A program made the translations under genes and the position numbers. The notes below the pieces were generated by a model that had not been told where the DNA came from, did not search any database, and was given only the letters and a program-made list of their open reading frames with translations. Below, one piece after another: positions 4,011-57,367 of a DNA stretch of 57,813 nucleotides; within the stretch, counting starts at the first letter, position 1, and the number at the start of each line of letters is the position of its first letter. Origin of the DNA: an uncultured Candidatus Saccharibacteria bacterium (GTDB taxonomy: Bacteria > Patescibacteriota > Minisyncoccia > UBA9983); the NCBI GenBank assembly GCA_964372755.1, contig CAYJQX010000005.1:1-57813 (forward strand), read 5' to 3'.

Positions 4011-4117
4011 ACGACGCTAATACACGAATAATACAGGCGAATGAACACGAATAACAAAGAAGGGGGCCAAATCTGATACTACATTAGTGTTATTGGTGTT
4101 CATTTACATATTGGTGC
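4011..4117. repeat. Inverted-repeat element copy A (empty, degenerate right arm)
   Basis: acgacgctaatacacgaataatacaggcgaatgaacacgaat...attagtgttattggtgttcatttacatattggtgcgg; matches copies at 17469, 38929, 53612 and 55162. Confidence 0.85.
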
Positions 4118-4120
4118 GGG

Positions 4121-4939
4121 TTACTTAACCGACCCTTTTTCCTTTTCTAACGTTCCCGCCAGAGCCGTATTTCCTGCCGCTTTGGCGATTTCTATCGCTT
4201 TGTCGTAATAAACAAGAGCCTCTGAATTCATTTTTGTCTCGGCATAATATTGAGCCAAGCGGACATGTAAATCCAGAGATTTGGGATTTTTTTCAATACC
4301 CCGTTTCAAAATATCATCAGCTTGATCGGACTTTTGAAGATACGAGAAACGATATAGATCATGCAGGGACAAATACGCTGGTATATAGTCGGCTTTTATC
4401 TCCAACCCTTTCATCAAATTTTTCTCCGCTTGCGGATAATCTTTGAGGTAGAAACGATACAGGTCGCCGAGATTCATATAAACCACTTCGTATTGGGGTC
4501 TATTCAGAGAAACGAATTTCCAAATCTCCTCGGCTCCTTTATAATCTCCGATATTTTTCTTGTATGTCCCCAAATCCATCCAATGGCTGATGAGGGTATT
4601 GTCTTTTTTCAGGACCTCGGATATTTCTTTGATCTTATCCGTATAAAACTTCTTTTCCTCCTCCGATAAAGAAGCGGTAACAACTATCAGCTTTGCAAGA
4701 TCAGGGGCGACCCCTTTGAGCTTGTCGGAAATAATTGTAACGAAAGGGGCACCCTCTTTGTTTGTATTATCATTTTTCGGGTCGCCTGATATATCTTTAT
4801 CTTTTTGGGAGTTTAAATTCTCCGCTTTTTCCTTGTTAAAAATCTTGATATCCTGCCATGAAAAATATGAAATACCGCCAACCACCAAAACCAAAAGAAG
4901 GATCGATAATGCCAGTTTTATTTTTTCTGATTTCTCCAT
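4121..4939 (-). CDS. TPR-repeat protein with N-terminal membrane anchor
   Basis: Helical repeats (YMNLGDLY...AEKNL; YLSLHDLY; HVRLAQYY...ALVYYDKAIE); hydrophobic N-terminus. Confidence 0.85.
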   Translation of the reverse strand: MEKSEKIKLALSILLLVLVVGGISYFSWQDIKIFNKEKAENLNSQKDKDISGDPKNDNTNKEGAPFVTIISDKLKGVAPDLAKLIVVTASLSEEEKKFYTDKIKEISEVLKKDNTLISHWMDLGTYKKNIGDYKGAEEIWKFVSLNRPQYEVVYMNLGDLYRFYLKDYPQAEKNLMKGLEIKADYIPAYLSLHDLYRFSYLQKSDQADDILKRGIEKNPKSLDLHVRLAQYYAETKMNSEALVYYDKAIEIAKAAGNTALAGTLEKEKGSVK

Positions 4940-17468: not shown

Positions 17469-17594
17469 CGACGCTAATACACGAATGACGCACGACACCA
17501 ATACACGAATGGACACGAATGACACTAATATAATACCCGACCTTAACTTTTTCTATTCGTGTTATTCGCCTGTATTATTCGCGTATTAGTGTCG
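17469..17594. repeat. Inverted-repeat element copy B (empty) between ssb and rpsR
   Basis: cgacgctaatacacgaatgacgcacgacaccaatacacgaatggacacgaat...attcgtgttattcgcctgtattattcgcgtattagtgtcg. Confidence 0.9.
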
Positions 17595-22897: not shown

Positions 22898-22908
22898 ATT
22901 TTCCTGCT

Positions 22909-22945
22909 TTGCCAAGCCATAGCTTCTTAGCGAAGGCTGGCGGGG
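22909..22945. repeat. ccatagcttc-NN-agcgaagg palindrome family copy upstream of metG
   Basis: Shares its core with the 33-bp inserts at 43755-43787 and 53699-53731. Confidence 0.7.
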
Positions 22946-23021
22946 CGTCTTTTTTGCATAAGCTCCGAGAAACACGGATAATTTTCTGCTGAAAATTTCC
23001 TAATGCTCGCTCCGGTCGAGC

Positions 23022-23050
23022 CTCTCCTCGAGTCTGAGCGACCTCGGAGT
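23022..23050. repeat. Intergenic copy of 29-bp repeat also found in uvrB
   Basis: ctctcctcgagtctgagcgacctcggagt vs 51603-51631 ctctcctcgattttgagcgacctcggagt (2 mismatches). Confidence 0.85.
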
Positions 23051-23113
23051 CGATGACGAAATTGTTTCTCTGGGAGCCTTATGCGGAAATTACAAGAGCA
23101 GATTACAGGAAAG

Positions 23114-30199: not shown

Positions 30200-33100
30200 T
30201 TATATTTTGAAAATAAATTCAAGGCCGCCAATTAACACACTCTCTCCGGAGTGCACCGAAGAAAATTTTATTTCCGACATGTTGGTGGCTTTCTTAAGGG
30301 AATTCTCTATCGTTCTTATTAATGACTCGCCTTCCATTTCAGTTTGAACATAAAGAACGGCTTGTTCACCAGTTTTGAGGCCAGATTTTTTCCGTAAATC
30401 CTGCACGGCACGCACGAGGTCTCTCAACATTCCTTCCTCTTTCAATTCCTCGGTTATATTGGTATCGATTTCCGCTTCATTTTCTATAGAATCGTCAAAA
30501 ATAATTTCTTTGACGTTCACCTCCTCCTTTATCAAATCCTGCATTCCAAGATTGTTTCGGATTTCGGATTTCGTGCTTCTGATTTTTAGACTTGCAAGTG
30601 GTTGACGCACTTTAATATTCGCTCTCATGCGGGCTTCAAGACCGAATGAGGTAATCTTTCTTGCTTCTGACATTTTTTCTACCAAATTTTTTTGTAAGTC
30701 GTCTTGAAAGAGGTCTTCTTCAAATACAGGCCAACTCGCAAGATGCACGCTTTCTACATCATCTTCTTTTTTTATTCCTTGCCAAATTTCTTCAGACACA
30801 AAAGGCATAAATGGAGCCATGATAAGAGAAAGAGTACGCAGTACATGGTAAGTAGTATTCAGAGCGCCCGAATCGCCATCTCGCATTCTGTCGCGAGATC
30901 TGCGGATATACCATGTAGATAAATCTTCCACAAATCCTTCAATCGGACGAGTGGCCTTATCTAATTCATAATTTTCCATAGCTCTAGTTACTTCGTAGAA
31001 AAGCTGGTAAAGGCGTATGACTATCCACTTATCAAGAACATTTTCTATTTCTTTCAGATTTTGAATTCCGTATTCCACATCATGAATTTTATTTTGCTCA
31101 AAAAATAAAACCACATTTTTTAATCGTCCGATCACCTTGTTCATTATTTCTTGGACTTCTTTTTCAGAAAAATTCAAATCTCCGCCCCGCACCACGGGAG
31201 AATTAAGAAAATAATAGCGAAGAGCATCCGCGCCGTATTTACCCACGACAAACATCGGATCGGGATAATTTTTTAGACGCTTGCTCATTTTCTGACCGTC
31301 TTCGGCAAGAATAAGACCCGTAGAGGTGACATTCAAGAAAGAAGTTTTATCAAAAAGAGCCACTCCCAAAACATGCATTGTATAAAACCATCCTCTTGTC
31401 TGATCCACCGCTTCACCAATAAAATCGGCCGGATATCCCACCCCCCTTTTCGGATCAAAATCTTCTTTGGGTTTTCCTAGATATCCCGCAGACGCGTACG
31501 GCATGGAGCCTGATTCGTACCAACAATCAAAAACTCCGCTCACTCTCTGTAACTGCGCCCCGCAATCGCATTTTAATAAAATCTCGTCTATAAAAGGACG
31601 GTGAAGATCCAGATCATAATTTTCGTTATGAGGTATGGGCACAAAATCCAGACTTTTTATTTCTGAATTTTTTATGAATTCCCCTTCTTTTTCCTGTAAA
31701 AACTTTATGGCTTCATCCGTCGTGAGCCCCTTCGCGCCAGAGATCATCATCCAAGCCGGAGTAGAATGAGTGATAATGAGTATCTTTTTATTATTATATT
31801 TACTCTCCAGCTCGTAGATAAAATTCGAGACTCTCTTTTTTACATCCAAAAGATTTTCTCCCTCAGGGACTCTTTTCTCAAATCTTTCTTCCATGGAATC
31901 AAAGTAGCCATGATATTGCGAGGTCGGATGATTGTTCATTTGACCAAAATTTACTTCTCGCAACCTTTCGTCAAAAAACAAGGCTGATTTTTCCAAACCT
32001 GTACTTTCTCTTACAATCTCGGCCGTTTCCTTAGTGCGGATAAAATCAGAACTGAAAATAAAATCCAATTCTATTTCCTTGATTGTTGAAATAGAATTTT
32101 TCACTTGTCTAACTCCCTCTTCTGTAAGATGATGAGGATTTTTTGGATCGGAGCTCAAAATTTCCAGGACATTGTTTTCTGCCTGTCCGTGTCGCATCAC
32201 AAAATATTTGTTATGAGATTTTAATGCGTGTTTTTTTGTATCTTCAACAGAGCCTATAACCTCCACCTTCTTACATTCCTTACATTTCCATACGGGAATA
32301 GGAGCTCCCCAATAACGGGAACGCGAAATCGCCCAGTCTTTTGCGCCGAGGAGCCATTTGCCAAAACGGCCGTCGCGAAGATGCTCCGGAACCCAATGAA
32401 TTTTTTGATTTTCAGAAATTATTTTTTCATGTAATTTGTCGTCCGAAACTTTCACAAACCAAGATGAGGAAGCATAATTTATAAGCGGAGTATCGCACCG
32501 CCAGCAATGAGGATACGAGTGGGTAATATTTTCTTTGGCAAAAAATAAATTTCTCTCTTCTAAATTTTTTAAAATGGCAATGTCGGTAGCCAAACGCTCT
32601 TTATCTTCTCCTTTTGGTTTAACCGCCATCCCTTTGAAATCCAAAACTTCCATTTTCATTCTTCCGTCTTCAGCAACATGTTGGATAAAAGGCAAATTCT
32701 CTTTCTGGCCTAAAAGCATGTCGTCTTCTCCAAAAGCGGGCGCAATATGCACAATGCCAGTACCTTCGTCCGTTGTTACAAAATCCGCGCTATAGGTTTT
32801 CCAGCCCCGCCCGAACGATTGAGATCGTTCAGTCGAGCTGGCGTTTTCTTTATTTTTTAGGCTTTCTTCTTTGAAGTAATAATCGAAGATTGGTTTGTAT
32901 GATTTGCCAATCAAGTCATTCCCTTTGATTTCTTTAACCAACTGATATTGGATATTTTTAAAAACGGATTCAAGGCGATCTTTTGCGATAATCAGATATT
33001 CTTTTTTTTGAGATTTTTCATTTAGTACTTCAACCTGGCTGTAAATTATTTTTTTATTGACAGCCAAAGCCACGTTGCCCGGCAATGTCCACGGTGTCGT

Positions 33101-33877
33101 CGTCCATGCTAAAACGTATGTTTTAGCATGCCCTGTCCTCAACTCTGAGGGAAGAGTATCGCTCGGACTCGAACAAGAGCTTGTCGAAAGGCTACCCCCC
33201 TCATCCACCAACTCAAACTTTGCATAAATGGAAATATCTTTGATATCCTTGTAACCCTGATTGACTTCAAAATTAGAAAGAGTCGTCCCACAACGAGAAC
33301 AGAGATGCATGGATTTATACCCTTCATAGATAAGACCTTTACCATAGAGAGTCTTGAAAGACCACCAGACGGATTCCGTATAGCTCGCATCCATCGTTTT
33401 GTAATCAGCCTGCATGTCCGCCCACCTACCTATTCTCGGGATTATTCTTCGCCAGTCGTCCGCAAAACGCAAAACAGCGTTTCTGGCGGATTGGTTGAAC
33501 TTTTGGACTCCAAGATCCTCTATCTCCTTTTTTGTCCTGATACCCAATTCAGATTCAATAATGTTTTCAAGAGGAAGTCCGTGACAATCCCACCCCCACC
33601 TGCGCGGTACTCTGTACCCATGCATAGTTTTGTATCGAGGTATAACATCTTTGATGATGCTCTGTAAAATATGCCCGTAATGAGGCAAACCAGTGGCAAA
33701 AGGCGGGCCGTCATAAAAAACAAAATCACCAGCTTTGGATTTTTTCTCAAGGCTTTTTTCAAAAATCTTATTCTCGTTCCAAAAAGCCAGAATTTTTTCT
33801 TCGTCTTTAGAAATCAAGCTTTTTTCTTCTTTTTGATCTTTACTATCCATAGTTTTTTGAATTTCGTTCTCTCCCAT
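30200..33877 (-). CDS. ileS: Isoleucine--tRNA ligase with inserted histidine-phosphatase domain
   Basis: DGPPFATGLPHYGH, GWDCHGLP, WTTTPWTLP, DQTRGWFY, KMSKR; RHG domain at ~31640-32215. Confidence 0.96.
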   Translation of the reverse strand: MGENEIQKTMDSKDQKEEKSLISKDEEKILAFWNENKIFEKSLEKKSKAGDFVFYDGPPFATGLPHYGHILQSIIKDVIPRYKTMHGYRVPRRWGWDCHGLPLENIIESELGIRTKKEIEDLGVQKFNQSARNAVLRFADDWRRIIPRIGRWADMQADYKTMDASYTESVWWSFKTLYGKGLIYEGYKSMHLCSRCGTTLSNFEVNQGYKDIKDISIYAKFELVDEGGSLSTSSCSSPSDTLPSELRTGHAKTYVLAWTTTPWTLPGNVALAVNKKIIYSQVEVLNEKSQKKEYLIIAKDRLESVFKNIQYQLVKEIKGNDLIGKSYKPIFDYYFKEESLKNKENASSTERSQSFGRGWKTYSADFVTTDEGTGIVHIAPAFGEDDMLLGQKENLPFIQHVAEDGRMKMEVLDFKGMAVKPKGEDKERLATDIAILKNLEERNLFFAKENITHSYPHCWRCDTPLINYASSSWFVKVSDDKLHEKIISENQKIHWVPEHLRDGRFGKWLLGAKDWAISRSRYWGAPIPVWKCKECKKVEVIGSVEDTKKHALKSHNKYFVMRHGQAENNVLEILSSDPKNPHHLTEEGVRQVKNSISTIKEIELDFIFSSDFIRTKETAEIVRESTGLEKSALFFDERLREVNFGQMNNHPTSQYHGYFDSMEERFEKRVPEGENLLDVKKRVSNFIYELESKYNNKKILIITHSTPAWMMISGAKGLTTDEAIKFLQEKEGEFIKNSEIKSLDFVPIPHNENYDLDLHRPFIDEILLKCDCGAQLQRVSGVFDCWYESGSMPYASAGYLGKPKEDFDPKRGVGYPADFIGEAVDQTRGWFYTMHVLGVALFDKTSFLNVTSTGLILAEDGQKMSKRLKNYPDPMFVVGKYGADALRYYFLNSPVVRGGDLNFSEKEVQEIMNKVIGRLKNVVLFFEQNKIHDVEYGIQNLKEIENVLDKWIVIRLYQLFYEVTRAMENYELDKATRPIEGFVEDLSTWYIRRSRDRMRDGDSGALNTTYHVLRTLSLIMAPFMPFVSEEIWQGIKKEDDVESVHLASWPVFEEDLFQDDLQKNLVEKMSEARKITSFGLEARMRANIKVRQPLASLKIRSTKSEIRNNLGMQDLIKEEVNVKEIIFDDSIENEAEIDTNITEELKEEGMLRDLVRAVQDLRKKSGLKTGEQAVLYVQTEMEGESLIRTIENSLKKATNMSEIKFSSVHSGESVLIGGLEFIFKI

Positions 33878-38928: not shown

Positions 38929-39395
38929 CGACGCTAATACACAAATAATACGCACGAATGACACGAATTTAAATCCTTTCGGAAAAAATAATCCTTTTTG
39001 GTTTTAAGTATCTATTTCTAAAATTAACCACCAATCCTAGTTTGTATTTGGAAGCCTTCAAGTATCTAAGCATTTGATAATAGTCTTCTTTCTCGGTAAA
39101 GGGTTTGGCTTTCAAGTCCACCAATATCTTGCCTTCAATGGAGAAATCTACCTTATTAGTAGCCTTGTTGTCAATCAAGTCAACCGATATATTTTTCTCC
39201 CTTTCAAAAACCACTTCTGAAGCAACTAAAAGTTTCTCTAATGCGTCCGCATATTGGCGCTCTCTACAAAACCGACCCAATTCGTTATGAACCTTAAAAC
39301 ATAGACCAGAAATAGTATAAGAAAGCTCGGGGTATAAAATTGTCCTTTCCTTTTTACTATTCGTGTCATTCGAATCCATTAGCGTATTGGTGTCG
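38929..39395 (-). mobile_element. GxxExxY nuclease gene bracketed by ~40-bp imperfect inverted repeats (putative mobile cassette)
   Basis: Left arm 38929-38968 cgacgctaatacacaaataatacgcacgaatgacacgaat; right arm 39359-39395 attcgtgtcattcgaatccattagcgtattggtgtcg; interrupts the normally adjacent nusG-rplK. Confidence 0.6.
38969..39379 (-). CDS. GxxExxY family PD-(D/E)XK nuclease-like protein
   Basis: ILYPELSY.I.G..FKVHNELG...E.QY..AL; VDF.IE.KILVDLKA; QML.YLKAS...LGLVVNF. Confidence 0.9.
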   Translation of the reverse strand: MDSNDTNSKKERTILYPELSYTISGLCFKVHNELGRFCRERQYADALEKLLVASEVVFEREKNISVDLIDNKATNKVDFSIEGKILVDLKAKPFTEKEDYYQMLRYLKASKYKLGLVVNFRNRYLKPKRIIFSERI

Positions 39396-39397
39396 TG

Positions 39398-39943
39398 TTA
39401 TATTTTCTTCGCCTGCAAGAAATCTATTTCCACCGGCGTTTCGCGCCCAAAGATAGAGACAAGAATCTTGATTTTGCCACGCGCTTCGTCCACTTCGTTT
39501 ATTCTGCCTTCAAAATCTTTAAAAGGACCATCGGTAATTTTCACAATATCCCCTTCTTTTACGTCCAATTTATATTTCGGTTCTTCCACTCCCATGCGTT
39601 TGAACAGGGAATCTATTTCCTCTTTGGAAAGAGGGATTGGAGTTGTTCCACTGCCCACAAACCCAGTTACCCTTGGGGTGTTTCTCACCACATACCACGA
39701 GTCGTCCGAAACTATCATATCCACCAAGACATACCCCGGATAGATTTTTTCTTCTATCACCTGCCGTTTGCCTCCTTTAATTTTTATCTTTTTTTCTGTT
39801 GGCACCACTACTTCAAAAATTTCGTCCTCTTTTCCTAAAGATTCTATGCGCTGTTTTAAATTTCTTACCACAGCATCTTCATAACCAGAGTAGGTGTGGA
39901 TAGCGTACCAATTTCTGCCGGCTTGAACTTCTTGTCTTGCCAT
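39398..39943 (-). CDS. nusG: Transcription termination/antitermination factor NusG
   Basis: WYAIHTYSGYE, YPGYVLV, VRNTPRVTGFVG, KOW GPFKDFEG, FGRETPVE. Confidence 0.99.
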   Translation of the reverse strand: MARQEVQAGRNWYAIHTYSGYEDAVVRNLKQRIESLGKEDEIFEVVVPTEKKIKIKGGKRQVIEEKIYPGYVLVDMIVSDDSWYVVRNTPRVTGFVGSGTTPIPLSKEEIDSLFKRMGVEEPKYKLDVKEGDIVKITDGPFKDFEGRINEVDEARGKIKILVSIFGRETPVEIDFLQAKKI

Positions 39944-41259: not shown

Positions 41260-42444
41260 CTAAATAATACCAGAGAGATATTTTTCTTGGAAATCGCTGT
41301 ATCTGTCATCTTTGATAGCCTCACGGATTTTCTTCATCAGATCGCTAAAAAAATAGATATTATGAATGGAGCCAAGCGCTTCGGCTTCGCCGTATTCTTT
41401 CGTTCCCTTTCCTGTCTTAAAGTAAGCCCGGAGTTCTCCGCGCGTAATTTTTCTTTTCTCACAAGAGAAACATTCGCAACCGTTCTCAAGTAAATTTTCG
41501 TCATTTTTGTATTGACTGGCCAAAACATTAACCCTTCCTTTGCTTGTCCATACTCCTCCGTGTCGGCCTTCTCTGGTCGGCACCACGCAATCAAAAGTAT
41601 CTATCCCTGCTTCTACTCCTTTAAAAACATCTTCAATCTTGCCGATACCCAACAGATGCCGAGGTTTACCTTCAGGCAAAAAAGGAACAGCCCAATCCAA
41701 CTCGCGGTAAGTCACCTCCTTGGAATCCCCGAATGACGAACCAAAAGCGCCACCCAAAGCAAAACCATCAAAAGGCATTTCGCTTATGGTTTTTGCGCTC
41801 TCTTTCCTTAATTCTTCATATGGTCCGCCTTGAACTATACCGTAGAGAAGCTGGCCGTTTTTAGATTTAGTCTCCAAACATCTCTTTGCCCAACGATGGG
41901 TGCGTTCCATCCTCTCCCGTGTTTTTTCCGCAGATTCCAAGGGAGAGCTTGGATCGTCAAAAGCAAAAATAATATCGGCTCCGAGAGCCTCCTGTATCCA
42001 TATAGATTTTTCCGGACTCAAAAAATAATCTATTCCCTCATCCTCAAAACGCACTCCGTTTTCGTTTACAACAACAGCGCTATTTTTCTTGTAACTATTC
42101 CCGTCACTCATGCCGATTTTCCCCACATTTTGCTCTTTGGCCACACCGAGACTAAAAACTTGAAACCCACCGGAATCCGTCATAATCGGTTTTTGCCAAT
42201 TAGACATTTCATGCAATCCAGAAAAATTTTTAAGACGATCTTCTCCCATATCCCGCCATAAATGATAAGTATTCATCATCAGAATTTCCGCCCCTGCTTC
42301 CATCAATTTTTCCGCATTCAAACCTTTTACAAACCCATGCGTGCCGACAATGGCGTACGAGGGCGTTTCCAAAACGCCGTGGGCTGTGTATATCTCCCCC
42401 GCTCTCGCCCGACTATCATTATCTTTATTTAAAACTTTGAACAT
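41260..42444 (-). CDS. tgt: Queuine tRNA-ribosyltransferase
   Basis: NTYHL, TDSGGFQVFSL, GIVQGG, PRHLLGIG, FDCVVPTR, CECFSC Zn site. Confidence 0.96.
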   Translation of the reverse strand: MFKVLNKDNDSRARAGEIYTAHGVLETPSYAIVGTHGFVKGLNAEKLMEAGAEILMMNTYHLWRDMGEDRLKNFSGLHEMSNWQKPIMTDSGGFQVFSLGVAKEQNVGKIGMSDGNSYKKNSAVVVNENGVRFEDEGIDYFLSPEKSIWIQEALGADIIFAFDDPSSPLESAEKTRERMERTHRWAKRCLETKSKNGQLLYGIVQGGPYEELRKESAKTISEMPFDGFALGGAFGSSFGDSKEVTYRELDWAVPFLPEGKPRHLLGIGKIEDVFKGVEAGIDTFDCVVPTREGRHGGVWTSKGRVNVLASQYKNDENLLENGCECFSCEKRKITRGELRAYFKTGKGTKEYGEAEALGSIHNIYFFSDLMKKIREAIKDDRYSDFQEKYLSGII

Positions 42445-42527
42445 TTCATTTTAGGGAAAGAGAAGTATTTTGAAAAGCAAAAAAGACCTCGTCATCACTA
42501 CAATAATGCAGTTATGTATTACATCCA

Positions 42528-42881
42528 TTATTTAGCTCCGAATGTATCCGACTCCTTCTCCAAAGATTTGGTAATCTTATTTTTTAGAATTACTATATCA
42601 GACAAAACAGTATTCCACACGACATCAATATCAACTTCAAAATAATCATGGATCGCCCTATCTCTAAAACCAGCAATATCTTTCCAAGGCAAATTGATGC
42701 TAGTTTTTGTCTCTGGTGATATTTTTTTTGATAACTCTCCGATCAGAGCCAGTTGCATAATTACAGCGCTTTGTGTTTTGGCGTCAGAAATAAAAATTTC
42801 TTTATCCATCTTCGCGGTAAATAATTCAACCTTGTCCACTGCCTCAAGTATCCTCTTTAAGTAGACTTCATCGCTTTTCAT
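42528..42881 (-). CDS. HEPN (DUF86/HepT-like) ribonuclease toxin
   Basis: IGE...PWKDIAGFRDRAIHDYF (RxxxxH); downstream of MNT gene. Confidence 0.9.
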   Translation of the reverse strand: MKSDEVYLKRILEAVDKVELFTAKMDKEIFISDAKTQSAVIMQLALIGELSKKISPETKTSINLPWKDIAGFRDRAIHDYFEVDIDVVWNTVLSDIVILKNKITKSLEKESDTFGAK

Positions 42882-43158
42882 ATACGGTTTTTATTTCCGG
42901 CAACACATATGGTTTTATGTGTTTGTTCAAACTTTTTTCCGTTATAAGATCAACTTTCCTCCCAAGAGATTTTTCAATGGCGCCAATTAACTCCATATAC
43001 AAAAACATGCCCATGGGTTTTCCCGGACGAATAAGTATATCAACATCACTTTCTGGTCTATCTTCTCCTCGAGAAACTGAGCCAAAAACACCGGCATATT
43101 CCACGCCATAAGAATCTAAAATCGGAGATATTTTTTCTTGTATATCGGATATCGTCAC
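42868..43158 (-). CDS. Minimal nucleotidyltransferase (MNT) antitoxin
   Basis: FGSVSRGE...SDVDILI, RKVDL; GTG start at 43158 preferred because a TATAAT lies in the longer extension. Confidence 0.9.
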   Translation of the reverse strand: MTISDIQEKISPILDSYGVEYAGVFGSVSRGEDRPESDVDILIRPGKPMGMFLYMELIGAIEKSLGRKVDLITEKSLNKHIKPYVLPEIKTVYEKR

Positions 43159-43208
43159 ACAAAAAATTATAGCATAAAACACCTAAAAACCATAATTCTA
43201 CCGATTTT

Positions 43209-43262
43209 TATTTCTCCCACTCCGGCTTTAGAATTTTTGTCCTTATTTAAAACTTTGAACAT
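43209..43262 (-). pseudogene. Remnant 5' end of tgt overlapping uvrC stop
   Basis: Encodes MFKVLNKDKNSKAGVGEI vs tgt MFKVLNKDNDSRARAGEI; 23 bp identical (43243-43265 = 42425-42447). Confidence 0.75.
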
Positions 43263-44583
43263 TTCGTATTTTTTTGTGGTAGCTGATGGCAAACCTGTGC
43301 GCTTCGTCGCGAAGGCGAATTAAGGTGATGGGCAAAACATTTTTAGGAATCGCGCCAATGAAGTCATTTCGCTTGCGCTCTGGCCCCTTAGCAATACCCA
43401 CCACAGGAATTTCATAACCATATTCGGCAAGCACTTCTTTCACGGCATTGACCTGTCCTTTCCCCCCGTCAATCAAAAAACAAACAGGCAGAGGCCACTG
43501 GTCATGATTCAACCGCCTGCGTAAAACTTCTTTAAGCATTCCCGTGTCCCCGCCAGTGGCTCGGGCAGGATTAGCGCCCTCTATCGTTTTTATTTTAAAC
43601 TTGCGGTAGTCACTTTTCTTCGGCTCGCCATCTTCAAAAACAACCATCACGCCCACAGCCGAAGTTCCCGAAATATTCGAGATATCATAGCCTTCAATCC
43701 TGGTATTTCGATTTTTTGGCTTAGTATTATTCGTGTCATTCGTATCCATTCGCGCTTGCCCGCCCATAGCTTCCCAGCGAAGGAGGGTATTGGTGTCGTC
43801 ATGAATTAACGCCACATCATTGATATGATTGATGGCGAAAACTTGGCGTTTTATTTTTTCGGCTTTCTCAAATTCAAGATTTCTGCTTGCCTTTTTCATC
43901 TCGGCTTCAAGATTTCGCAAAATCTTTTTCTTCTCGCCTTTGAAAAAAAGTTTTATGTTTGAAATATTTTTCGCGTAATCGGCTTTGGAAATTAAACCCG
44001 CGCAAGTGCCCGGGCAAAGCCCTATCTGATAATCAAAACAAGGTTTACCCCGCGGAGCTTCAGCAGAGTGGGGGCGACTTTCTGGATGAACGCTATAAGG
44101 AAAAATCCTACGGATAATCTTTAGCGCTTCGCGCAAACTGGATGAAGAAGTGAACGGGCCGAAATTCGTCCCTTTTGCCAAAATCCCTTTCTCTCTAATA
44201 ATCAAAACTCTCGGGAATTTGTCTTTGGTAATTTGAACATAAAGAAAGCTCTTGCCATCCTTCTCGCGGATATTAAATGGCGGTTGATACTTTTTAATCA
44301 ACTCCGCCTCGAGTATCAAAGCTTCTACAGCATTGGCTGTTTCGCGGTAATCAATTTTTGCAATTTGCCCCACCATCGCCTCAATCCGCGCGTCGTGAGG
44401 ATGAGTAAAATAACTCTCTACTCTTCTTTTGAGACTTGTGGCTTTGCCCACATAAAGGATTTTGGCATCCTTGTCACACATCAAATACACCCCGGGCGAT
44501 TCCGGCAAAACTCCATTTTTGATTTTTACTTGCCCCTTAAAGCTCTTTGAGCGAAGTAGGGATTGTTTTGGAACCTGCGACAT
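43243..44583 (-). CDS. uvrC: Excinuclease ABC subunit C (short, no HhH tail)
   Basis: PGVYLM...YVGKATSLKRRVESYF GIY-YIG; UVR coiled coil LEFEKAEKIK; RIEGYDISN; LIDGGKGQ; RDEAHRFA. Confidence 0.95.
   Translation of the reverse strand: MSQVPKQSLLRSKSFKGQVKIKNGVLPESPGVYLMCDKDAKILYVGKATSLKRRVESYFTHPHDARIEAMVGQIAKIDYRETANAVEALILEAELIKKYQPPFNIREKDGKSFLYVQITKDKFPRVLIIREKGILAKGTNFGPFTSSSSLREALKIIRRIFPYSVHPESRPHSAEAPRGKPCFDYQIGLCPGTCAGLISKADYAKNISNIKLFFKGEKKKILRNLEAEMKKASRNLEFEKAEKIKRQVFAINHINDVALIHDDTNTLLRWEAMGGQARMDTNDTNNTKPKNRNTRIEGYDISNISGTSAVGVMVVFEDGEPKKSDYRKFKIKTIEGANPARATGGDTGMLKEVLRRRLNHDQWPLPVCFLIDGGKGQVNAVKEVLAEYGYEIPVVGIAKGPERKRNDFIGAIPKNVLPITLIRLRDEAHRFAISYHKKIRNVQSFK
43730..43798. repeat. 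Single arm of inverted-repeat element (copy D) with nested 33-bp insert, in frame in uvrC
   Basis: 43735-43798 identical to 53679-53742 over 64 bp. Confidence 0.92.
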
Positions 44584-50957: not shown

Positions 50958-53075
<2,118 letters not shown>

Positions 53076-53155
53076 GTTTTAATTTTGCTTTTAATAAATA
53101 CAAGCAAATTAAAGAATAGGGATTAGAGTAAATTAAATCAAATATTTTTAGAGAA

Positions 53156-53530
53156 TTATTTGGATGCTTTTTTTTGGCTCTTTATTTTCCTTGCTCCGTC
53201 TCTCGCGCGAGCAATATTTTTACCGTGAGTCCGAACAAGTTCTTTTTTGATTTCGTCTTTGGCCTTATCGATAGCTTTATAAATATCAGTCTCCTCCGCC
53301 GTCGCTCGCAAGCCTTTTTTGGAACGCGCCGGCATTATTTGGATTTCGGCCCGAAAAACTTCGCCTTTATGGTGCCGGCTCGTTACCATGCCCACTTCCA
53401 CAAAAATACCCGCGTTTTCGCTGTAACCGTGTATGAATTTCTCGATAGAAAAAACTTTTTTCAAAACATATTCCCTGACGGCATCGGTTAAAACAAATTT
53501 TGTGGCTTGAATTGAGATTAGACGTTTCAT
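53156..53530 (-). CDS. hpf: Ribosome hibernation factor (HPF/RaiA, short)
   Basis: LTDAVREYV.KK...FRAEIQI...ATAEETDIYKAIDKAKDEI. Confidence 0.88.
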   Translation of the reverse strand: MKRLISIQATKFVLTDAVREYVLKKVFSIEKFIHGYSENAGIFVEVGMVTSRHHKGEVFRAEIQIMPARSKKGLRATAEETDIYKAIDKAKDEIKKELVRTHGKNIARARDGARKIKSQKKASK

Positions 53531-53611
53531 ATCTTGAGTATAACACGAGGGAGAATGTGGGGGCTAGTATATCCTGAAATTTAAGATAAGAATGGAATCT
53601 ACGCAATTTAA

Positions 53612-53742
53612 CAACGCTAATAATACGCGTGAATGAAGCAAACAGAAGAAACTGGGGCAGACGCATTGCATTATTAGCGTCATTCGTATCCATTCGCGCT
53701 TGCCCGCCCATAGCTTCCCAGCGAAGGAGGGTATTGGTGTCG
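53612..53742. repeat. Inverted-repeat element copy E (degenerate left arm; right arm with nested 33-bp insert)
   Basis: caacgctaataatacgcgtgaatg...attagcgtcattcgtatccattcgcg[cttgcccgcccatagcttcccagcgaaggaggg]tattggtgtcg. Confidence 0.88.
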
Positions 53743-53743
53743 G

Positions 53744-54355
53744 TTAATTATATTTCTTCAGTGTCTGAAAATCCTTAAGTAACTCCGGTTTTTCGTGAAT
53801 ATTGTAAATAGCCACAGCCGGATGATAGAGAGGTAAAATGTCTAATTCTCCATAGGAGGTTTTGGCTTTAAAAACTCTGCCATGCATTTGGCTTATCGGA
53901 CCGCATTGCAGTCCTAAACCGAATTTTTCCATTATATAGACCATGGAAAATCTGCCCAAGGTAGCGATTACCCGAGGCTGAATTGTTTCTATTTGTCTGT
54001 CTAAAAATGGGCTATATAAATTTATTTCGGCCGGAGTCGGGTCGCGATTTTCTGGCGGACGATCTTTGACAATATTGGTAACATAAACATCTTCTCTTTT
54101 TATGCCAACAGAGAAAAGCAGTTCGTCCAAAACCCTCCCCGACGCGCCACAAAAGGGCCGTCCTGTTTGGGCTTCATTTTTCCCCGGCGCTTCGCCGACA
54201 AACATTATTTTAGCGGAGTGGCTCCCCTCCCCGATAACAGGAAAGGATTTATTCTGAATTCTATATTCGTAAAGAGGCGAAACTTTGAGATTTAAAACTT
54301 CTTCTTTAATTTTTTTGAGTTGTCCTGTTTTTTTATTCGTGTCATTCGTGAACAT
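53744..54355 (-). CDS. Uracil-DNA glycosylase family 4
   Basis: MFVGEAPG..E...GRPFCGASG, VYVTNIVKDRPPENRDP, LYHPA. Confidence 0.94.
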   Translation of the reverse strand: MFTNDTNKKTGQLKKIKEEVLNLKVSPLYEYRIQNKSFPVIGEGSHSAKIMFVGEAPGKNEAQTGRPFCGASGRVLDELLFSVGIKREDVYVTNIVKDRPPENRDPTPAEINLYSPFLDRQIETIQPRVIATLGRFSMVYIMEKFGLGLQCGPISQMHGRVFKAKTSYGELDILPLYHPAVAIYNIHEKPELLKDFQTLKKYN

Positions 54356-54371
54356 TCGCGTATTGGTGTCG
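54335..54371. repeat. Single arm of inverted-repeat element (copy F) containing the UDG start codon
   Basis: attcgtgtcattcgtgaacattcgcgtattggtgtcg; ATG at 54355. Confidence 0.9.
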
Positions 54372-54373
54372 GG

Positions 54374-55150
54374 TTATCTGATTTCGTAGGTAATAGTGAC
54401 CGAAGCTTTCACTTCTTCCGAGCCCGGCTCTATTTGAGGAGCAGAGCTTTTTTGAATGGAAGCTCCGGCAAAATCACCCCCATAAACTTCATAAAAAGGG
54501 GAGTTCGGTGAGTTGTCATAGATACTGGTTATTCTCCCTATTTTGAATCCGCCTGCCTCCGCTATAACCAAAGCTTTTTCTTTGGCCTTTTTTATCGCTT
54601 CCGCCCTAGCTTCTGCCTCGGCTTTCTCTGGATTGTCTATAACAAAGAAAAGTTGGGAAACAGAATTAGCTCCGTTTTTCACCACTCCGCTTACCACATC
54701 CCCTGTTTTTGTGAGATCACGAATTTTGATTTCCAAAGTCTGACTGACAGTATAACCGGATATTTCCGGCGCCGGACAGATTCTGTCCGTGCAGTTGTAA
54801 TAAGGATATTTCGGAACAACATTGTAATTTAGGGTTTTGATATCTTTAGGATCCACGCCTTTGGCTTTCACAAAATCTATAACCTTATTTGCGTTTTCAG
54901 TATTCTTTGTTTGAATGGCGTTTAAATCTTTGCCACCTTCAGTGATAACACTGGCTGTAAATTTTGCCACGTCGGGCACTGTAATAACCTTGCCTTCGGA
55001 TGTAACAGAAAACGTCCTGTTGTAATAGGAATCGAGAGAATCATAACTTGTCCAAGCAAAAAACACCCCATATGAAATAGCCGCTAGAGCAATCGACGAT
55101 GAGCCGATAATGATAGAGATTCCTAAGTATTTTTTTATTTTTGGTTCCAT
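54374..55150 (-). CDS. SIMPL (DUF541) domain protein
   Basis: VTSEGKV...PDVA, GANSVSQLFF, ARAEAIKKAKEKA...A; start set at MEPKIKK. Confidence 0.9.
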   Translation of the reverse strand: MEPKIKKYLGISIIIGSSSIALAAISYGVFFAWTSYDSLDSYYNRTFSVTSEGKVITVPDVAKFTASVITEGGKDLNAIQTKNTENANKVIDFVKAKGVDPKDIKTLNYNVVPKYPYYNCTDRICPAPEISGYTVSQTLEIKIRDLTKTGDVVSGVVKNGANSVSQLFFVIDNPEKAEAEARAEAIKKAKEKALVIAEAGGFKIGRITSIYDNSPNSPFYEVYGGDFAGASIQKSSAPQIEPGSEEVKASVTITYEIR

Positions 55151-55161
55151 AATTTTTATAA

Positions 55162-55270
55162 CGACGCTAATACACGAATAATACACGAATGTCGCGAATA
55201 ATAAAGAGGGAAGACAAGATTTGGTATTATACTATTAGTGTCATTCGTGAACATTCGTGTATTGGTGTCG
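55162..55270. repeat. Inverted-repeat element copy G (empty)
   Basis: cgacgctaatacacgaataatacacgaatgtcgcgaat...attagtgtcattcgtgaacattcgtgtattggtgtcg. Confidence 0.92.
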
Positions 55271-55272
55271 GG

Positions 55273-55647
55273 TTATAAATATTCCCTCACTTTTTTCACT
55301 ATTTCGTCCAAGCTATTGTGCGCTTTCACCAAAAAAGCATCTGCACCGAGGGCTTTTGCCGAAGCCATGTCTTCCTGTGAACCAAGGTTAGTAAAAAGAA
55401 TGACCGGTATTTTCTTGGTTGCGTCGCCTACTTTCAAAAGCTTCAAAATTTCGAAGCCGTCAAGGCCGGGTAAAATGATATCCAGTAAGATGACGCTTGG
55501 GATCTTGTCTTTGGCAATTTTTATGGCTTCTTCTCCCTCCGAAGCGATAAAAACTTCTAAGTTTTCTTTTTTGAAAGCTTTTTCCGTTAAATCTCTCAAA
55601 AACTTATCGTCTTCTATAATAAGGACGCTTTTTTTGTTTTCTTCCAT
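55273..55647 (-). CDS. Single-domain response regulator (receiver)
   Basis: VLIIEDD, LLDIILPGLDG, ILFTN, FLVKA. Confidence 0.95.
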   Translation of the reverse strand: MEENKKSVLIIEDDKFLRDLTEKAFKKENLEVFIASEGEEAIKIAKDKIPSVILLDIILPGLDGFEILKLLKVGDATKKIPVILFTNLGSQEDMASAKALGADAFLVKAHNSLDEIVKKVREYL

Positions 55648-55681
55648 CTAATTTTTTTGTAAAAACAATACTATTGTATAC

Positions 55682-57367
55682 TTATTTTGAAACCTTTGCA
55701 ATCGGAAGACTCACCGTAAAAGTCGTGCCCTTCCCTTCTTCCGAAGAAAAAGAAATTTTTCCACCGTGGGCTTGGATGATGTTTTTGGCTATGTATAATC
55801 CAAGGCCAGTTCCTTCTGTTTCCATATGAAAAGCATTTCTGCTTCTAAAAAACTTTTCAAATATCCTCGGCTTATCTTTCTCGGGCACGCCAATACCAGT
55901 ATCGCTGATCGTCACTATAATTTTGCCATTTTCCGATTTCAAGAAAATCTTTATTGTACCTTCGGCAGGCGTGTACTTAATGGCGTTGCTGATTATGTTT
56001 TCAAAAGCAACGGTTATTTTTTCTTCGTCCAAAGAGAGTGGCGCGATAATTTTTACCTGTTCCTCTATTTTTAACCCTTTATTTTCTGCAATGATTCTAT
56101 TTTGACCTATAACGGAGAGCAGTACTTGGGCTAAATCAATTTTCTGAAAAGAAAATCCAAATCGGCCTTCTTCTATTCTTATGACATTCAACAAATCATC
56201 CACCAGTTCTATAAGATTTTCTGTTACCTCATTTAATTTTTCTACGTGTTCTTTTTGCTCAGAAGAAATCTTCCCGAGTGAGCCCTTGGAAAAAAGCCTG
56301 CCTATCCATTTTATGGCCGTGAGCGGAGTCCTAAGCCTGTGAGCAATCAGGGTTAAAAACTCGTCTTTTTGTCTGGATAAAGCTTCCAACCGCTTGTTTC
56401 TTTCCATCAGTTCTTTTGTCTGCTCAATTACCTTGCCCCTTAGGTTTGAAGTAAGATTCTGAAGCTGTAAAGCGAGAGCTTCTTGTTTTTCCTTCTGTCG
56501 CACTTCTTCTCTTATGCTTTTTATAAGAAACAAGCCAAGGATAAAAACAAAAATAAAAACAAAAATATCCACCAATTGATCGCCTGAATTTCTTTCAAGA
56601 AGAATTCTGGTGATAAGAAAAAACCACAAAAGCGCCACCAAAACTTCCGTCAGAACAGTCCGAACATTGAAAAGTTTGTAACGCAAAATAGCATAAGTCA
56701 TGATCATAGGATAAACGGCCACCATAAAATTAGCGTAAGGATAAATATCTACCTCAAAAACCGGCAAAAAAGCAGTCAGACCGCCGATTAATCCGGTCAA
56801 GGTGGCAAGCATAAAATATTTTGCCTGCATTCTTTTTCCCTCTTCTATTTTTTTATTTCTTGAAAACATCCAGAGCCGGTAATGAGAAAGGCCAAGAAGA
56901 CAAACAAAAAAGAAGACAAATAAAACATAGAGATCCGACGGAGGAGAATCATAATAAAAAGAACCGAAAACAAATCTCATTGATTCAATAAAATAAGGAG
57001 TGAGATTTAAAACCAGAAAAAAACCAGCGACAGAATAAACCGCCAAAGCCTCCATTTTTCTCCGCAAACCAAGAAACGAGTAAGTGAAAGCGTAATAAAC
57101 AGTTGGAATAAGGATAACTCCACCATGAGCCACTCGCCACCAGAATCTTGCCGCTTCAGGCATTGAAGCAGTTGCAACAAAAAATATTCCTAGTCCGTAA
57201 AGCGCCACGGAAAAAGCCTCCAGACACCAGAGTTTGGTGGCTTGATTGCGAAAACCTTTTACAAAAACATAAATGCCGAAAGCAAAATTTGTGATAAAAA
57301 TAAGGATACCCGAAATAGCAAAGGGATTAAGGTGAGAAAATAATGAATAAAAGTTCATTTTAAGCAA
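55682..57367 (-). CDS. Sensor histidine kinase with N-terminal multi-TM domain
   Basis: AHRLRTPL H-box, NIISNAIKY N-box, DTGIG, GTGLGL and GGKI boxes; ~9 N-terminal TM segments. Confidence 0.95.
   Translation of the reverse strand: MLKMNFYSLFSHLNPFAISGILIFITNFAFGIYVFVKGFRNQATKLWCLEAFSVALYGLGIFFVATASMPEAARFWWRVAHGGVILIPTVYYAFTYSFLGLRRKMEALAVYSVAGFFLVLNLTPYFIESMRFVFGSFYYDSPPSDLYVLFVFFFVCLLGLSHYRLWMFSRNKKIEEGKRMQAKYFMLATLTGLIGGLTAFLPVFEVDIYPYANFMVAVYPMIMTYAILRYKLFNVRTVLTEVLVALLWFFLITRILLERNSGDQLVDIFVFIFVFILGLFLIKSIREEVRQKEKQEALALQLQNLTSNLRGKVIEQTKELMERNKRLEALSRQKDEFLTLIAHRLRTPLTAIKWIGRLFSKGSLGKISSEQKEHVEKLNEVTENLIELVDDLLNVIRIEEGRFGFSFQKIDLAQVLLSVIGQNRIIAENKGLKIEEQVKIIAPLSLDEEKITVAFENIISNAIKYTPAEGTIKIFLKSENGKIIVTISDTGIGVPEKDKPRIFEKFFRSRNAFHMETEGTGLGLYIAKNIIQAHGGKISFSSEEGKGTTFTVSLPIAKVSK

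Follow-up and report, generated by a model that had tools for sequence, protein, structure and literature searches.

The window analysed here covers positions 1-57,813 of contig CAYJQX010000005.1 (forward strand; NCBI assembly GCA_964372755.1) from an uncultured Candidatus Saccharibacteria bacterium (Patescibacteriota; Minisyncoccia; UBA9983). The housekeeping genes that it carries lie almost all on the minus strand and include uvrA, uvrB, uvrC, recA, recO, ssb and nusG-rplK. The uvrC coding sequence (43243-44583, minus strand; 446 amino acids) encodes Pfam domains GIY-YIG (residues 30-101), UVR (219-251) and UvrC_RNaseH_dom (291-433), and its inter-domain linker holds a composite repeat (43728-43798, plus strand) in which arm A of an outer inverted repeat (43728-43754 and 43788-43798; nhmmer match at 43728-43754, E = 9.5e-8) is split by an inner, GC-rich hairpin of 33 bp (copy 1, 43755-43787, plus strand; 42.7 bits, E = 6e-9 with covariance model R1). 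Copy 2 of the hairpin, of the same sequence (53699-53731, plus strand), splits arm A (53672-53698 and 53732-53742) of a full outer inverted-repeat element (53612-53742, plus strand; arm B 53612-53639), which lies in the spacer between the stop codon (53744) of the uracil-DNA glycosylase (UDG) gene and the hibernation-promoting factor (HPF) gene. At 54334-54371 (plus strand; E = 1.2e-13), arm A is unsplit (CATTCGCG^TATTGGTGTCG); it lies in the spacer that separates the SIMPL stop codon from the UDG gene and contains the UDG start codon, and unitigs pass through this empty site unsplit.

Identity of the composite repeat

The segments 43735-43798 and 53679-53742 were identical at 64 of 64 bp, and no further base matched at either edge. 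Similarity continued leftward to a total of 80 bp at 94% identity (43719-43798 and 53663-53742; family D3). The 33-mer, CTTGCCCGCCCATAGCTTCCCAGCGAAGGAGGG, was found in the window only at 43755-43787 and 53699-53731; a search with its 28-nt core, allowing up to 3 mismatches, returned 2 matches where 0 were expected from 100 shuffles, and its G+C content was 67%, against 42% for the window. Excision of the 33-mer yields the arm CATTCGCG|TATTGGTGTCG, which is the unsplit arm of 54334-54371; other unsplit arms, with 1-2 substitutions, lie at 55232-55270, 39358-39395 and, in reverse, 17493-17530. It was thereby confirmed that a hairpin repeat is nested in the arm of a second, larger repeat both in uvrC and at an intergenic site. 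A preliminary description, made from the letters of the window, had proposed two repeat families, one within the other, a 64-bp composite shared by the two sites, and an intact reading frame through the copy in uvrC; the arms split at 43755-43787 and 53699-53731 and unsplit at 54334-54371, the recomputed exact match and the translation of the composite as DTNTLLRWEAMGGQARMDTND bear this out.

Parts of the region were present in eight public sequencing runs, for which Logan unitigs were used. Unitigs from the left uvrC flank entered the repeat (43300-43764 in run X2, 43314-43764 in run X3) and others left it into the right flank (43769-44300 in X1, 43735-43934 in X4, 43769-43945 in X6), all with 0 mismatches, in five metagenome runs from three studies (P1, P2 and P3). 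The junction unitigs end about 30 nt into the 64-bp repeat, those from the left and those from the right share 30 nt, and none spans all 64 bp, because unitigs break at repeats. A repeat of this length, crossed by no unitig, is one at which a misjoin could have made one of the copies, the objection that the preliminary description had raised against itself. Both uvrC junctions were nevertheless recovered independently in these runs, and the flanks are the two halves of a single uvrC, collinear with all orthologues and with the frame intact; such an artefact is therefore very unlikely, to the point of being scarcely credible. The sole RNA run (metatranscriptome) with any of the region covered 44159-44300, and not the composite site. 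The exact 32-mer was absent from JGI metagenome contigs.

The inner hairpin family

The 33-mer folds as an imperfect hairpin with an outer stem of 6 positions (one a G.A mismatch) and an inner stem of 3 bp. Single-sequence folds of the 33-mer (z = -0.34) and of the 80-bp composite were no better than shuffles, and a strong palindrome on its own was rejected on these energies. The word palindromic in the preliminary description thus holds for an imperfect hairpin backed by covariation, as set out below, but not for fold energy.

One genome per GTDB species (596 Gb, two strands) was searched with the core CCATAGCTTCNNAGCGAAGG (18 fixed bases). This returned 60 loci, against about 17 estimated by chance, and some of the 60 look like chance; about 45 of them also carry a 5' CCTGYC tag and complementary flanks, neither of which was in the query. 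In 57 members the outer stem covaried, with 84% of cells paired and 0 of 500 shuffles reaching the observed score, and the covarying pairs included CCGCC/GGCGG, CCTCC/GGAGG, CCACC/GGTGG and a bulged CCNNGCC/GGCTGG. The family is laid out as CYTGYC, stem, ATAGCTTC-NN-AGCGAA and complementary stem, with a covarying stem of 5-6 bp. As judged from these alignments, the inner element is a genuine repeat family.

A covariance model scan of the window returned only three copies in 58 kb, all on the plus strand; the third, diverged member (TTTGCCAAGCCATAGCTTCTTAGCGAAGGCTGGCGGGG; 22901-22948, plus strand; 44.1 bits, E = 2.5e-9) is intergenic, upstream of metG and outside any arm. The depth of the hairpin in the source metagenomes was 2-11 times single-copy depth. 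A known structured RNA was considered and set aside: no Rfam match was found at gathering thresholds in the whole window, and around both hairpin loci, with E up to 10, matches were at chance level only (E = 0.5-7). Literature searches with the sequence or peptide strings returned primer coincidences only.

The host genomes, roughly 35 in number, were mostly Verrucomicrobiota, Lentisphaerae/Victivallales and Kiritimatiellaeota, together with two Patescibacteria and a few metagenome-assembled genomes (MAGs) labelled Proteobacteria, and several held 3-6 hairpin copies. Nesting was seen in several of these loci. One copy (32-33 bp) lies inside the loop of another in L038; the hairpin lies within a CTGGGAGCGCCGGC...GCCGGCGCTCCCAG palindrome in L029, L058 and L059, and among short periodic units in L028, L055, L021, L042, L034, L047 and L071-L073. 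In L036 and L046, from a MAG of 41-43% G+C, it sits in one TTTCGTA-type arm of an inverted-repeat pair, close to the outer end of that arm; this is the same composite design and position as here in a different genome. In genomes of the Planctomycetes-Verrucomicrobia-Chlamydiae group (L004/L015 and L028/L055 of Lentisphaerae GWF2_50_93; L038 and L053 of Verrucomicrobiota SPRUCE 402), the hairpin was also observed inside longer repeated blocks whose shared flanks exceed 100 nt, and nested in, or in tandem with, its own copies.

The outer inverted-repeat elements

The outer arm is about 39 bp long and consists of ACGAAT-like units spaced 8-10 bp apart. A hidden Markov model of the arm found 12 copies at 7 loci in the window, all intergenic except that in uvrC, which is also solo, without a partner. 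Paired inverted arms form elements of 109, 126, 114 and 131 bp at 55162-55270, 17469-17594, 4012-4125 and 53612-53742, respectively. The first (plus strand; arm B 55162-55200, arm A 55232-55270) is intact, fills the spacer from a response-regulator stop codon to the SIMPL start, and folds as a long hairpin (-36.3 kcal/mol, z = -7.0); the second (plus strand), also intact, lies downstream of ssb (z = -3.7), and the third (plus strand) is more diverged and folds weakly (z = -1.2). The hairpin-filled element at 53612-53742 folds poorly (z = -0.4). Outer elements fill spacers between genes of the same direction, and arm A begins 1-2 nt past the upstream stop codon in 4 of 5 intergenic cases.

Start and stop codons were also noted at the arms themselves. 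At 54353-54376, 55270-55275, 39377-39400 and 53742-53746 the inverted repeat extends over the TAA stop (TTATAAC...GGTTATAA), the ATG of the arm is seemingly the start codon of UDG (MFTNDTNKK) and of a GxxExxY open reading frame (ORF; MDSNDTN), and the SIMPL stop codon lies 18 nt from the UDG start codon and shares its frame. Separately, a consensus scan of 53100-55700 for promoters and terminators was at chance level, and these roles for the arms were rejected.

In the nusG/rplK spacer, a candidate gene-carrying form of the outer element (38929-39395, minus strand) consists of a GxxExxY/PDDEXK_3 ORF (38969-39379, 136 amino acids) between arm B (38929-38968) and arm A (39358-39395). GxxExxY ORFs of 125-138 amino acids between inverted ACGAAT-type arms, with the arms overlapping the start and stop of the ORF, were found in the window and in three other Parcubacteria (L062, 2450-2927; L063/L064, 2474-2941 in L063; L065, 2484-2916). 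In L062 and L063/L064 the position is again nusG-rplK, and in L065 it is a spacer between pilT-like and pilC genes, so that 3 of 4 loci share one position; in L061, the contig of the closest relative, an ACGAAT arm lies directly after nusG. The nusG and rplK genes are adjacent in most bacteria. That the GxxExxY ORF is a recently mobile autonomous element was weakened as a proposal by the conservation of the nusG-rplK position in other Parcubacteria; no work on mobility of GxxExxY was found in the literature. Many GxxExxY homologues were observed on very short contigs, as multi-copy DNA does. From the distribution of the arms, the outer family is an old, lineage-wide intergenic element that resembles a MITE (miniature inverted-repeat transposable element), possibly related to the GxxExxY cassette.

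The insert in UvrC

A total of 7980 UvrC homologues were collected, named UvrC of Patescibacteria/Paceibacterota (the Candidate Phyla Radiation, CPR) and mostly 395-420 amino acids long. The closest UvrC among 5.8 billion proteins was 68% identical, and its contig (L061) is syntenic and its linker unrelated. The composite spans codons 262-286, encoding D-DTNT-LLRWEAMGGQA-RMDTNDTN-N in the stretch that separates the UVR motif from the RNase H-like endonuclease domain. Recognisable repeat DNA in uvrC amounts to 71 bp, about 24 codons, of which the hairpin supplies exactly 11 (LLRWEAMGGQA); the hairpin is stop-free in 5 of 6 frames, including the frame used. Intergenic arms run on as GTGTCG-N(1-2)-TTA, the complement of the TAA stop of the upstream gene. 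The uvrC arm terminates at GTCG (CGAC on the other strand), before N(1-2)TTA, and hence brings in no stop codon.

Among 120 aligned UvrCs, the linker (ALI to RIEGYD) was 34 amino acids long here, against a median of 17 (range 12-33) in the 119 orthologues. The composite peptide was present in 0 of the 119, as the preliminary description would have it, and several of them carry unrelated repeat-like inserts at the same place in the linker. Alignments to the solved C-terminal UvrC structures 3c65 and 2nrt begin at residue 293-294. An AlphaFold2 model of UvrC had a mean pLDDT of 82, with values below 50 only at residues 1-17, 264-290 (the composite) and 335-343. The insert sits in a variable, apparently disordered linker that joins the UvrB-binding UVR motif to the C-terminal endonuclease domain. 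Its effect on UvrC is most likely none or slight, that of a tolerated passenger and not of an adaptation.

A second in-frame extra was observed in the same protein, the 7-residue PARATGG at residues 339-345 (43549-43569; pLDDT below 50), which is absent from aligned UvrC orthologues and aligned PDB homologues. In our own comparison its coding-strand DNA, CCTGCCCGAGCCA|CTGGCGGGG, agreed at 18 of 22 positions with the two ends of the 22909-type hairpin, as though the hairpin had lost its central 17 nt by deletion. Repeat-like in-frame extras of their own were also seen in other CPR UvrCs (P0068, P0096, P0083, P0027, P0040, P0082, P0088 and P0016), either in the loop before RPCF (..KSYGGQGK.., a hairpin-family peptide, and ..NANDTKTNIRMMR..HSHTFVDSH.., of ACGAAT type) or, as GC-rich or palindromic peptides, in the linker between UVR motif and endonuclease domain.

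Origin of the identical composite

The unitigs contained at least four distinct left-hand entries into the composite, each with a depth close to single-copy: one from uvrC, one from the UDG-HPF spacer, one from a third locus that has G>A at 43752, and a fourth joining only at 43748, 7 nt left of the hairpin. A right-hand exit (GGTTACGCTTC...) was present in the unitigs and absent from the window. The search for more composite copies that the preliminary description had suggested thus gave at least two further loci, in the same metagenomes and outside the window. The alignment of the two window copies is a mosaic, with 0 of 64 mismatches followed by 5 of 16 in the adjoining arm (Fisher p = 1.8e-4), which shows recent homogenisation and not shared old ancestry; to the right of the hairpin, homology runs for 11 bp, and similarity then ends at the arm terminus. 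Four differing filled arms, right-hand homology of only 11 bp and 5 of 16 mismatches together favour spread of the hairpin among existing arms. A spread of the inner hairpin into pre-existing arms fits better than a chimera moving whole, and we give it a probability of about 0.6. The recent copying or conversion proposed in the preliminary description therefore stands as regards recent homogenisation, but its picture of a two-family chimera copied into a coding sequence is, as put there, not supported: at least four mutually different arms hold the same 33-mer at the same position, the homology on the right ends with the arm, and the uvrC arm differs at 5 of 16 positions in 43719-43734.

By this account, two unrelated small non-coding repeat families, an outer arm and an inner hairpin resembling repetitive extragenic palindromes (REPs), are stacked. 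The hairpin would have entered arm A at one preferred site, CATTCGCG^TATTGGTGTCG (CGCG^TATTGG), and from there reached four or more arms within one population. This would probably have happened by structure- or sequence-targeted insertion in trans with a few flanking bases co-copied; very short template-switch copying between arms could serve as an alternative. Several observations weigh against this account. Among the approximately 50 ORFs of the 58-kb window, Pfam searches gave no transposase, REP-associated tyrosine transposase (RAYT) or candidate mobilising enzyme; no insertion polymorphism, and with it no sign of current activity, was seen in the unitigs at filled or empty sites, Logan contigs dropping rare variants; and the placing of the extra composite loci in the same genome is inferred from depth. 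A GTATCC variant occurs in 3 of 4 filled arms and in 0 of 4 empty window arms, which is the pattern that propagation of an already-filled arm would give. Finally, the ancestral state of the linker cannot be reconstructed, because the arm in uvrC has no sharp 5' edge and the recognisable insert of 71 bp does not divide by 3.

The GTATCC pattern speaks for copying of the arm with its hairpin (about 72 bp, or the 64-bp identical block) as one unit: a single filled arm would have been duplicated to several places, uvrC among them, through templated break repair or the transposition of solo arms. The 64 bp identical at two loci include 20 bp of arm left of the hairpin with GTATCC, partnerless solo arms exist (54334-54371), and an arm of about 39 bp plus a hairpin of 33 bp makes about 24 codons, for which one-step in-frame entry is conceivable. 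A uniformly diverging chimera, however, would not yield the mosaic in which the adjoining 16 bp of the same arm differ at 5; the fourth filled arm diverges 7 nt left of the hairpin; and a unit ending inside the arm would have had to land, twice, beside sequence that continues the arm consensus. We regard unit copying as rather unlikely. The mosaic identity and its sharp left border would also follow from RecA-dependent gene conversion, in which a hairpin-containing tract was homogenised between dispersed arms, and recA, recO and many arm copies as donors are at hand in the window. Conversion needs homology on both sides, and here there are 27 bp on the left, followed by 69% identity, and only 11 bp on the right. 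The minimal processing segment for RecA recombination in E. coli is roughly 20-40 bp; the right-hand homology is well below this, which argues against classical gene conversion, and we consider it quite improbable.

A selected function has also been weighed, in which the composite would be a module such as an RNA-processing or translational-coupling signal or, in one variant, would supply through the in-frame ATG of its arm (..QAR-M-DTNDTN.., codon 279) an internal start for a separate C-terminal endonuclease. The close spacing of intergenic arms to upstream stop codons, the apparent use of the arm ATG by UDG and the GxxExxY ORF, and the fact that the ATG of the uvrC arm is in frame with the RNase H-like domain are in its favour. 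Against these, the 119 orthologues function without the composite, arm sequence varies freely from one copy to the next, the consensus scan for promoters and terminators was at chance level, and the hairpin weakens the inverted-repeat fold of its host element (z = -0.4, versus -7.0 for the intact one), and selection for such a module appears highly improbable. A bolder extension of hairpin spread, for which both parts rest on suggestive evidence and which we hold to be doubtful, would make the 33-nt hairpin a previously undescribed, cross-phylum REP-like super-family that homes into repeats and is moved by a structure-specific enzyme, and the ACGAAT-arm elements gene-less forms of the GxxExxY cassette, a new CPR class of selfish DNA that donates stop and start codons. 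The marks proposed for such a super-family are the CYTG tag, the invariant ATAGCTTC-NN-AGCGAA core and the ATA/GAA internal loop, and its proposed homing targets are its own loop, palindromes and periodic-unit arms.

Comparison with known elements

In a survey by Di Nocera et al. (2013; PMC3733652), REPs are mostly placed just downstream of ORFs, where they sometimes supply the stop codon, and a minority are in frame inside genes, including those of excinuclease ABC (uvrA of O. terrae and Thioalkalivibrio, uvrB of R. conorii); the R. conorii uvrB insert is said there to correspond to Rickettsia palindromic elements (RPEs). The inner hairpin resembles REPs in being a 20-40-bp stem-loop with a short unpaired end tag and covarying stems, mostly intergenic near the 3' end of an upstream ORF and occasionally in frame inside genes, notably those of excinuclease ABC. 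In size and stem length the 33-mer falls within the REP range (20-40 bp, stems 5-13 bp). REPs number from tens to thousands in a genome, and those with the GTAG tag go together with a RAYT, an IS200/IS605-like Y1 transposase that the repeats flank. The GTAG/CGTC tag of REPs is lacking: the unpaired 5' flank here is (G)CYTGYC, and ATAG/GTAG occurs only within the internal loop. It further differs from REPs in its invariant 16-nt core and 3x3 internal loop (ATA/GAA), in being nested in another repeat, in that no RAYT was seen nearby in the window, and in its CPR host, a group outside the survey. The hairpin core had no match among the O. terrae REP peptides and sequences or the supplementary REP lists of PMC3733652. 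The element is best filed as one that works like an intragenic REP or RPE and that lacks the tag of the REP super-family.

RPEs are mentioned together with in-frame insertion in two sources (PMC10969869; PMC3733652). The element here resembles them in behaviour, as selfish palindromic DNA carried in frame by still-functional genes of a small, reduced genome, in surface or linker regions, and it is set apart by description, being probably unrelated in sequence and, at 33 bp within an arm of 39 bp, much shorter than RPE-1. The primary report of RPEs is said to be that of Ogata et al. in 2000; RPEs are Rickettsia-specific, and RPE-1 elements are roughly 100-150 bp long.

The outer element has more in common with bacterial MITEs such as Correia/NEMIS, ERIC and Nezha (PMC10969869), as a non-coding element of 110-130 bp with terminal inverted arms of about 39 bp that folds as a long hairpin between co-directional genes. 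It falls within the usual MITE description (70-300 bp, terminal inverted repeats, non-coding), except that no target-site duplication was recognisable by eye at the flanks of outer elements; the TTATAA that flanks 55162-55270 at either side extends the inverted repeat (TTATAAC...GGTTATAA) and is not a direct repeat, and nothing similar was seen at other copies. It differs also in the 8-10-bp periodicity of ACGAAT-like units in its arms and in that the only gene between such arms, GxxExxY, is of the PD-(D/E)XK nuclease fold and not a known transposase. In fungal and algal mitochondria, mobile GC clusters and palindromic elements are short GC-rich hairpins in AT-richer genomes that invade repeats and coding regions with the frame kept; they are alike in habit, and, being organellar and of unrelated sequence, they serve as an analogy only.

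Other repeat inserts in the window

Residues 473-509 of UvrB (51549-51659) were seen to form an in-frame insert of 37 residues (SGKVFDGVLNSEVAQNRGERSRTRETLRLAQGEDRQP) that no solved UvrB contains. At 51603-51638 its DNA shares 86% identity with 23022-23057, a stretch inside an intergenic element of about 130 nt (22956-23087) that forms a long hairpin (-59.9 kcal/mol) and matched no Rfam family. Since the insert matches this intergenic twin, uvrB is a second repair gene with a repeat-derived insert.

Downstream of uvrC, a 62-bp direct repeat (42391-42452 and 43209-43270; 74% identical) flanks an MNT/HepT toxin-antitoxin pair (42528-43182), and each copy contains the end of uvrC (..NVQSFK*) overlapping the start of the tRNA-guanine transglycosylase (TGT) gene (MFKVLNKD..). 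In the syntenic relative L061, TGT directly follows uvrC; together with the direct repeats, this makes it seem that the toxin-antitoxin cassette was inserted, duplicating the uvrC/TGT junction. In addition, an isoleucyl-tRNA synthetase-like ORF (30200-33877; 1225 amino acids) was found to contain a histidine-phosphatase domain (His_Phos_1, residues 559-726) between two stretches matching the catalytic domain.

Implications

Genomes of CPR/Patescibacteria are small and gene-dense, and are usually called poor in mobile DNA. The present window holds at least three small-repeat families, two of them in frame in nucleotide-excision-repair genes (uvrC twice, uvrB once). Selfish repeats inside repair genes are already known elsewhere; what is new here is the host group, the hairpin family and the placing of one repeat within another. 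The composite exemplifies selfish DNA tolerated within a linker and not a new mechanism, and it extends the published and still unexplained bias of REPs and RPEs towards repair and replication genes to a new, deep-branching group. Such inserts lengthen proteins, give rise to spurious ORFs and odd peptides (..SYGGQA.., ..TNDTN..) in annotation, and break short-read assemblies. Filled versus empty sites are possible strain markers, and the cross-phylum core, together with the nesting habit of the hairpin, offers a concrete starting point in the search for the enzyme responsible for its movement.

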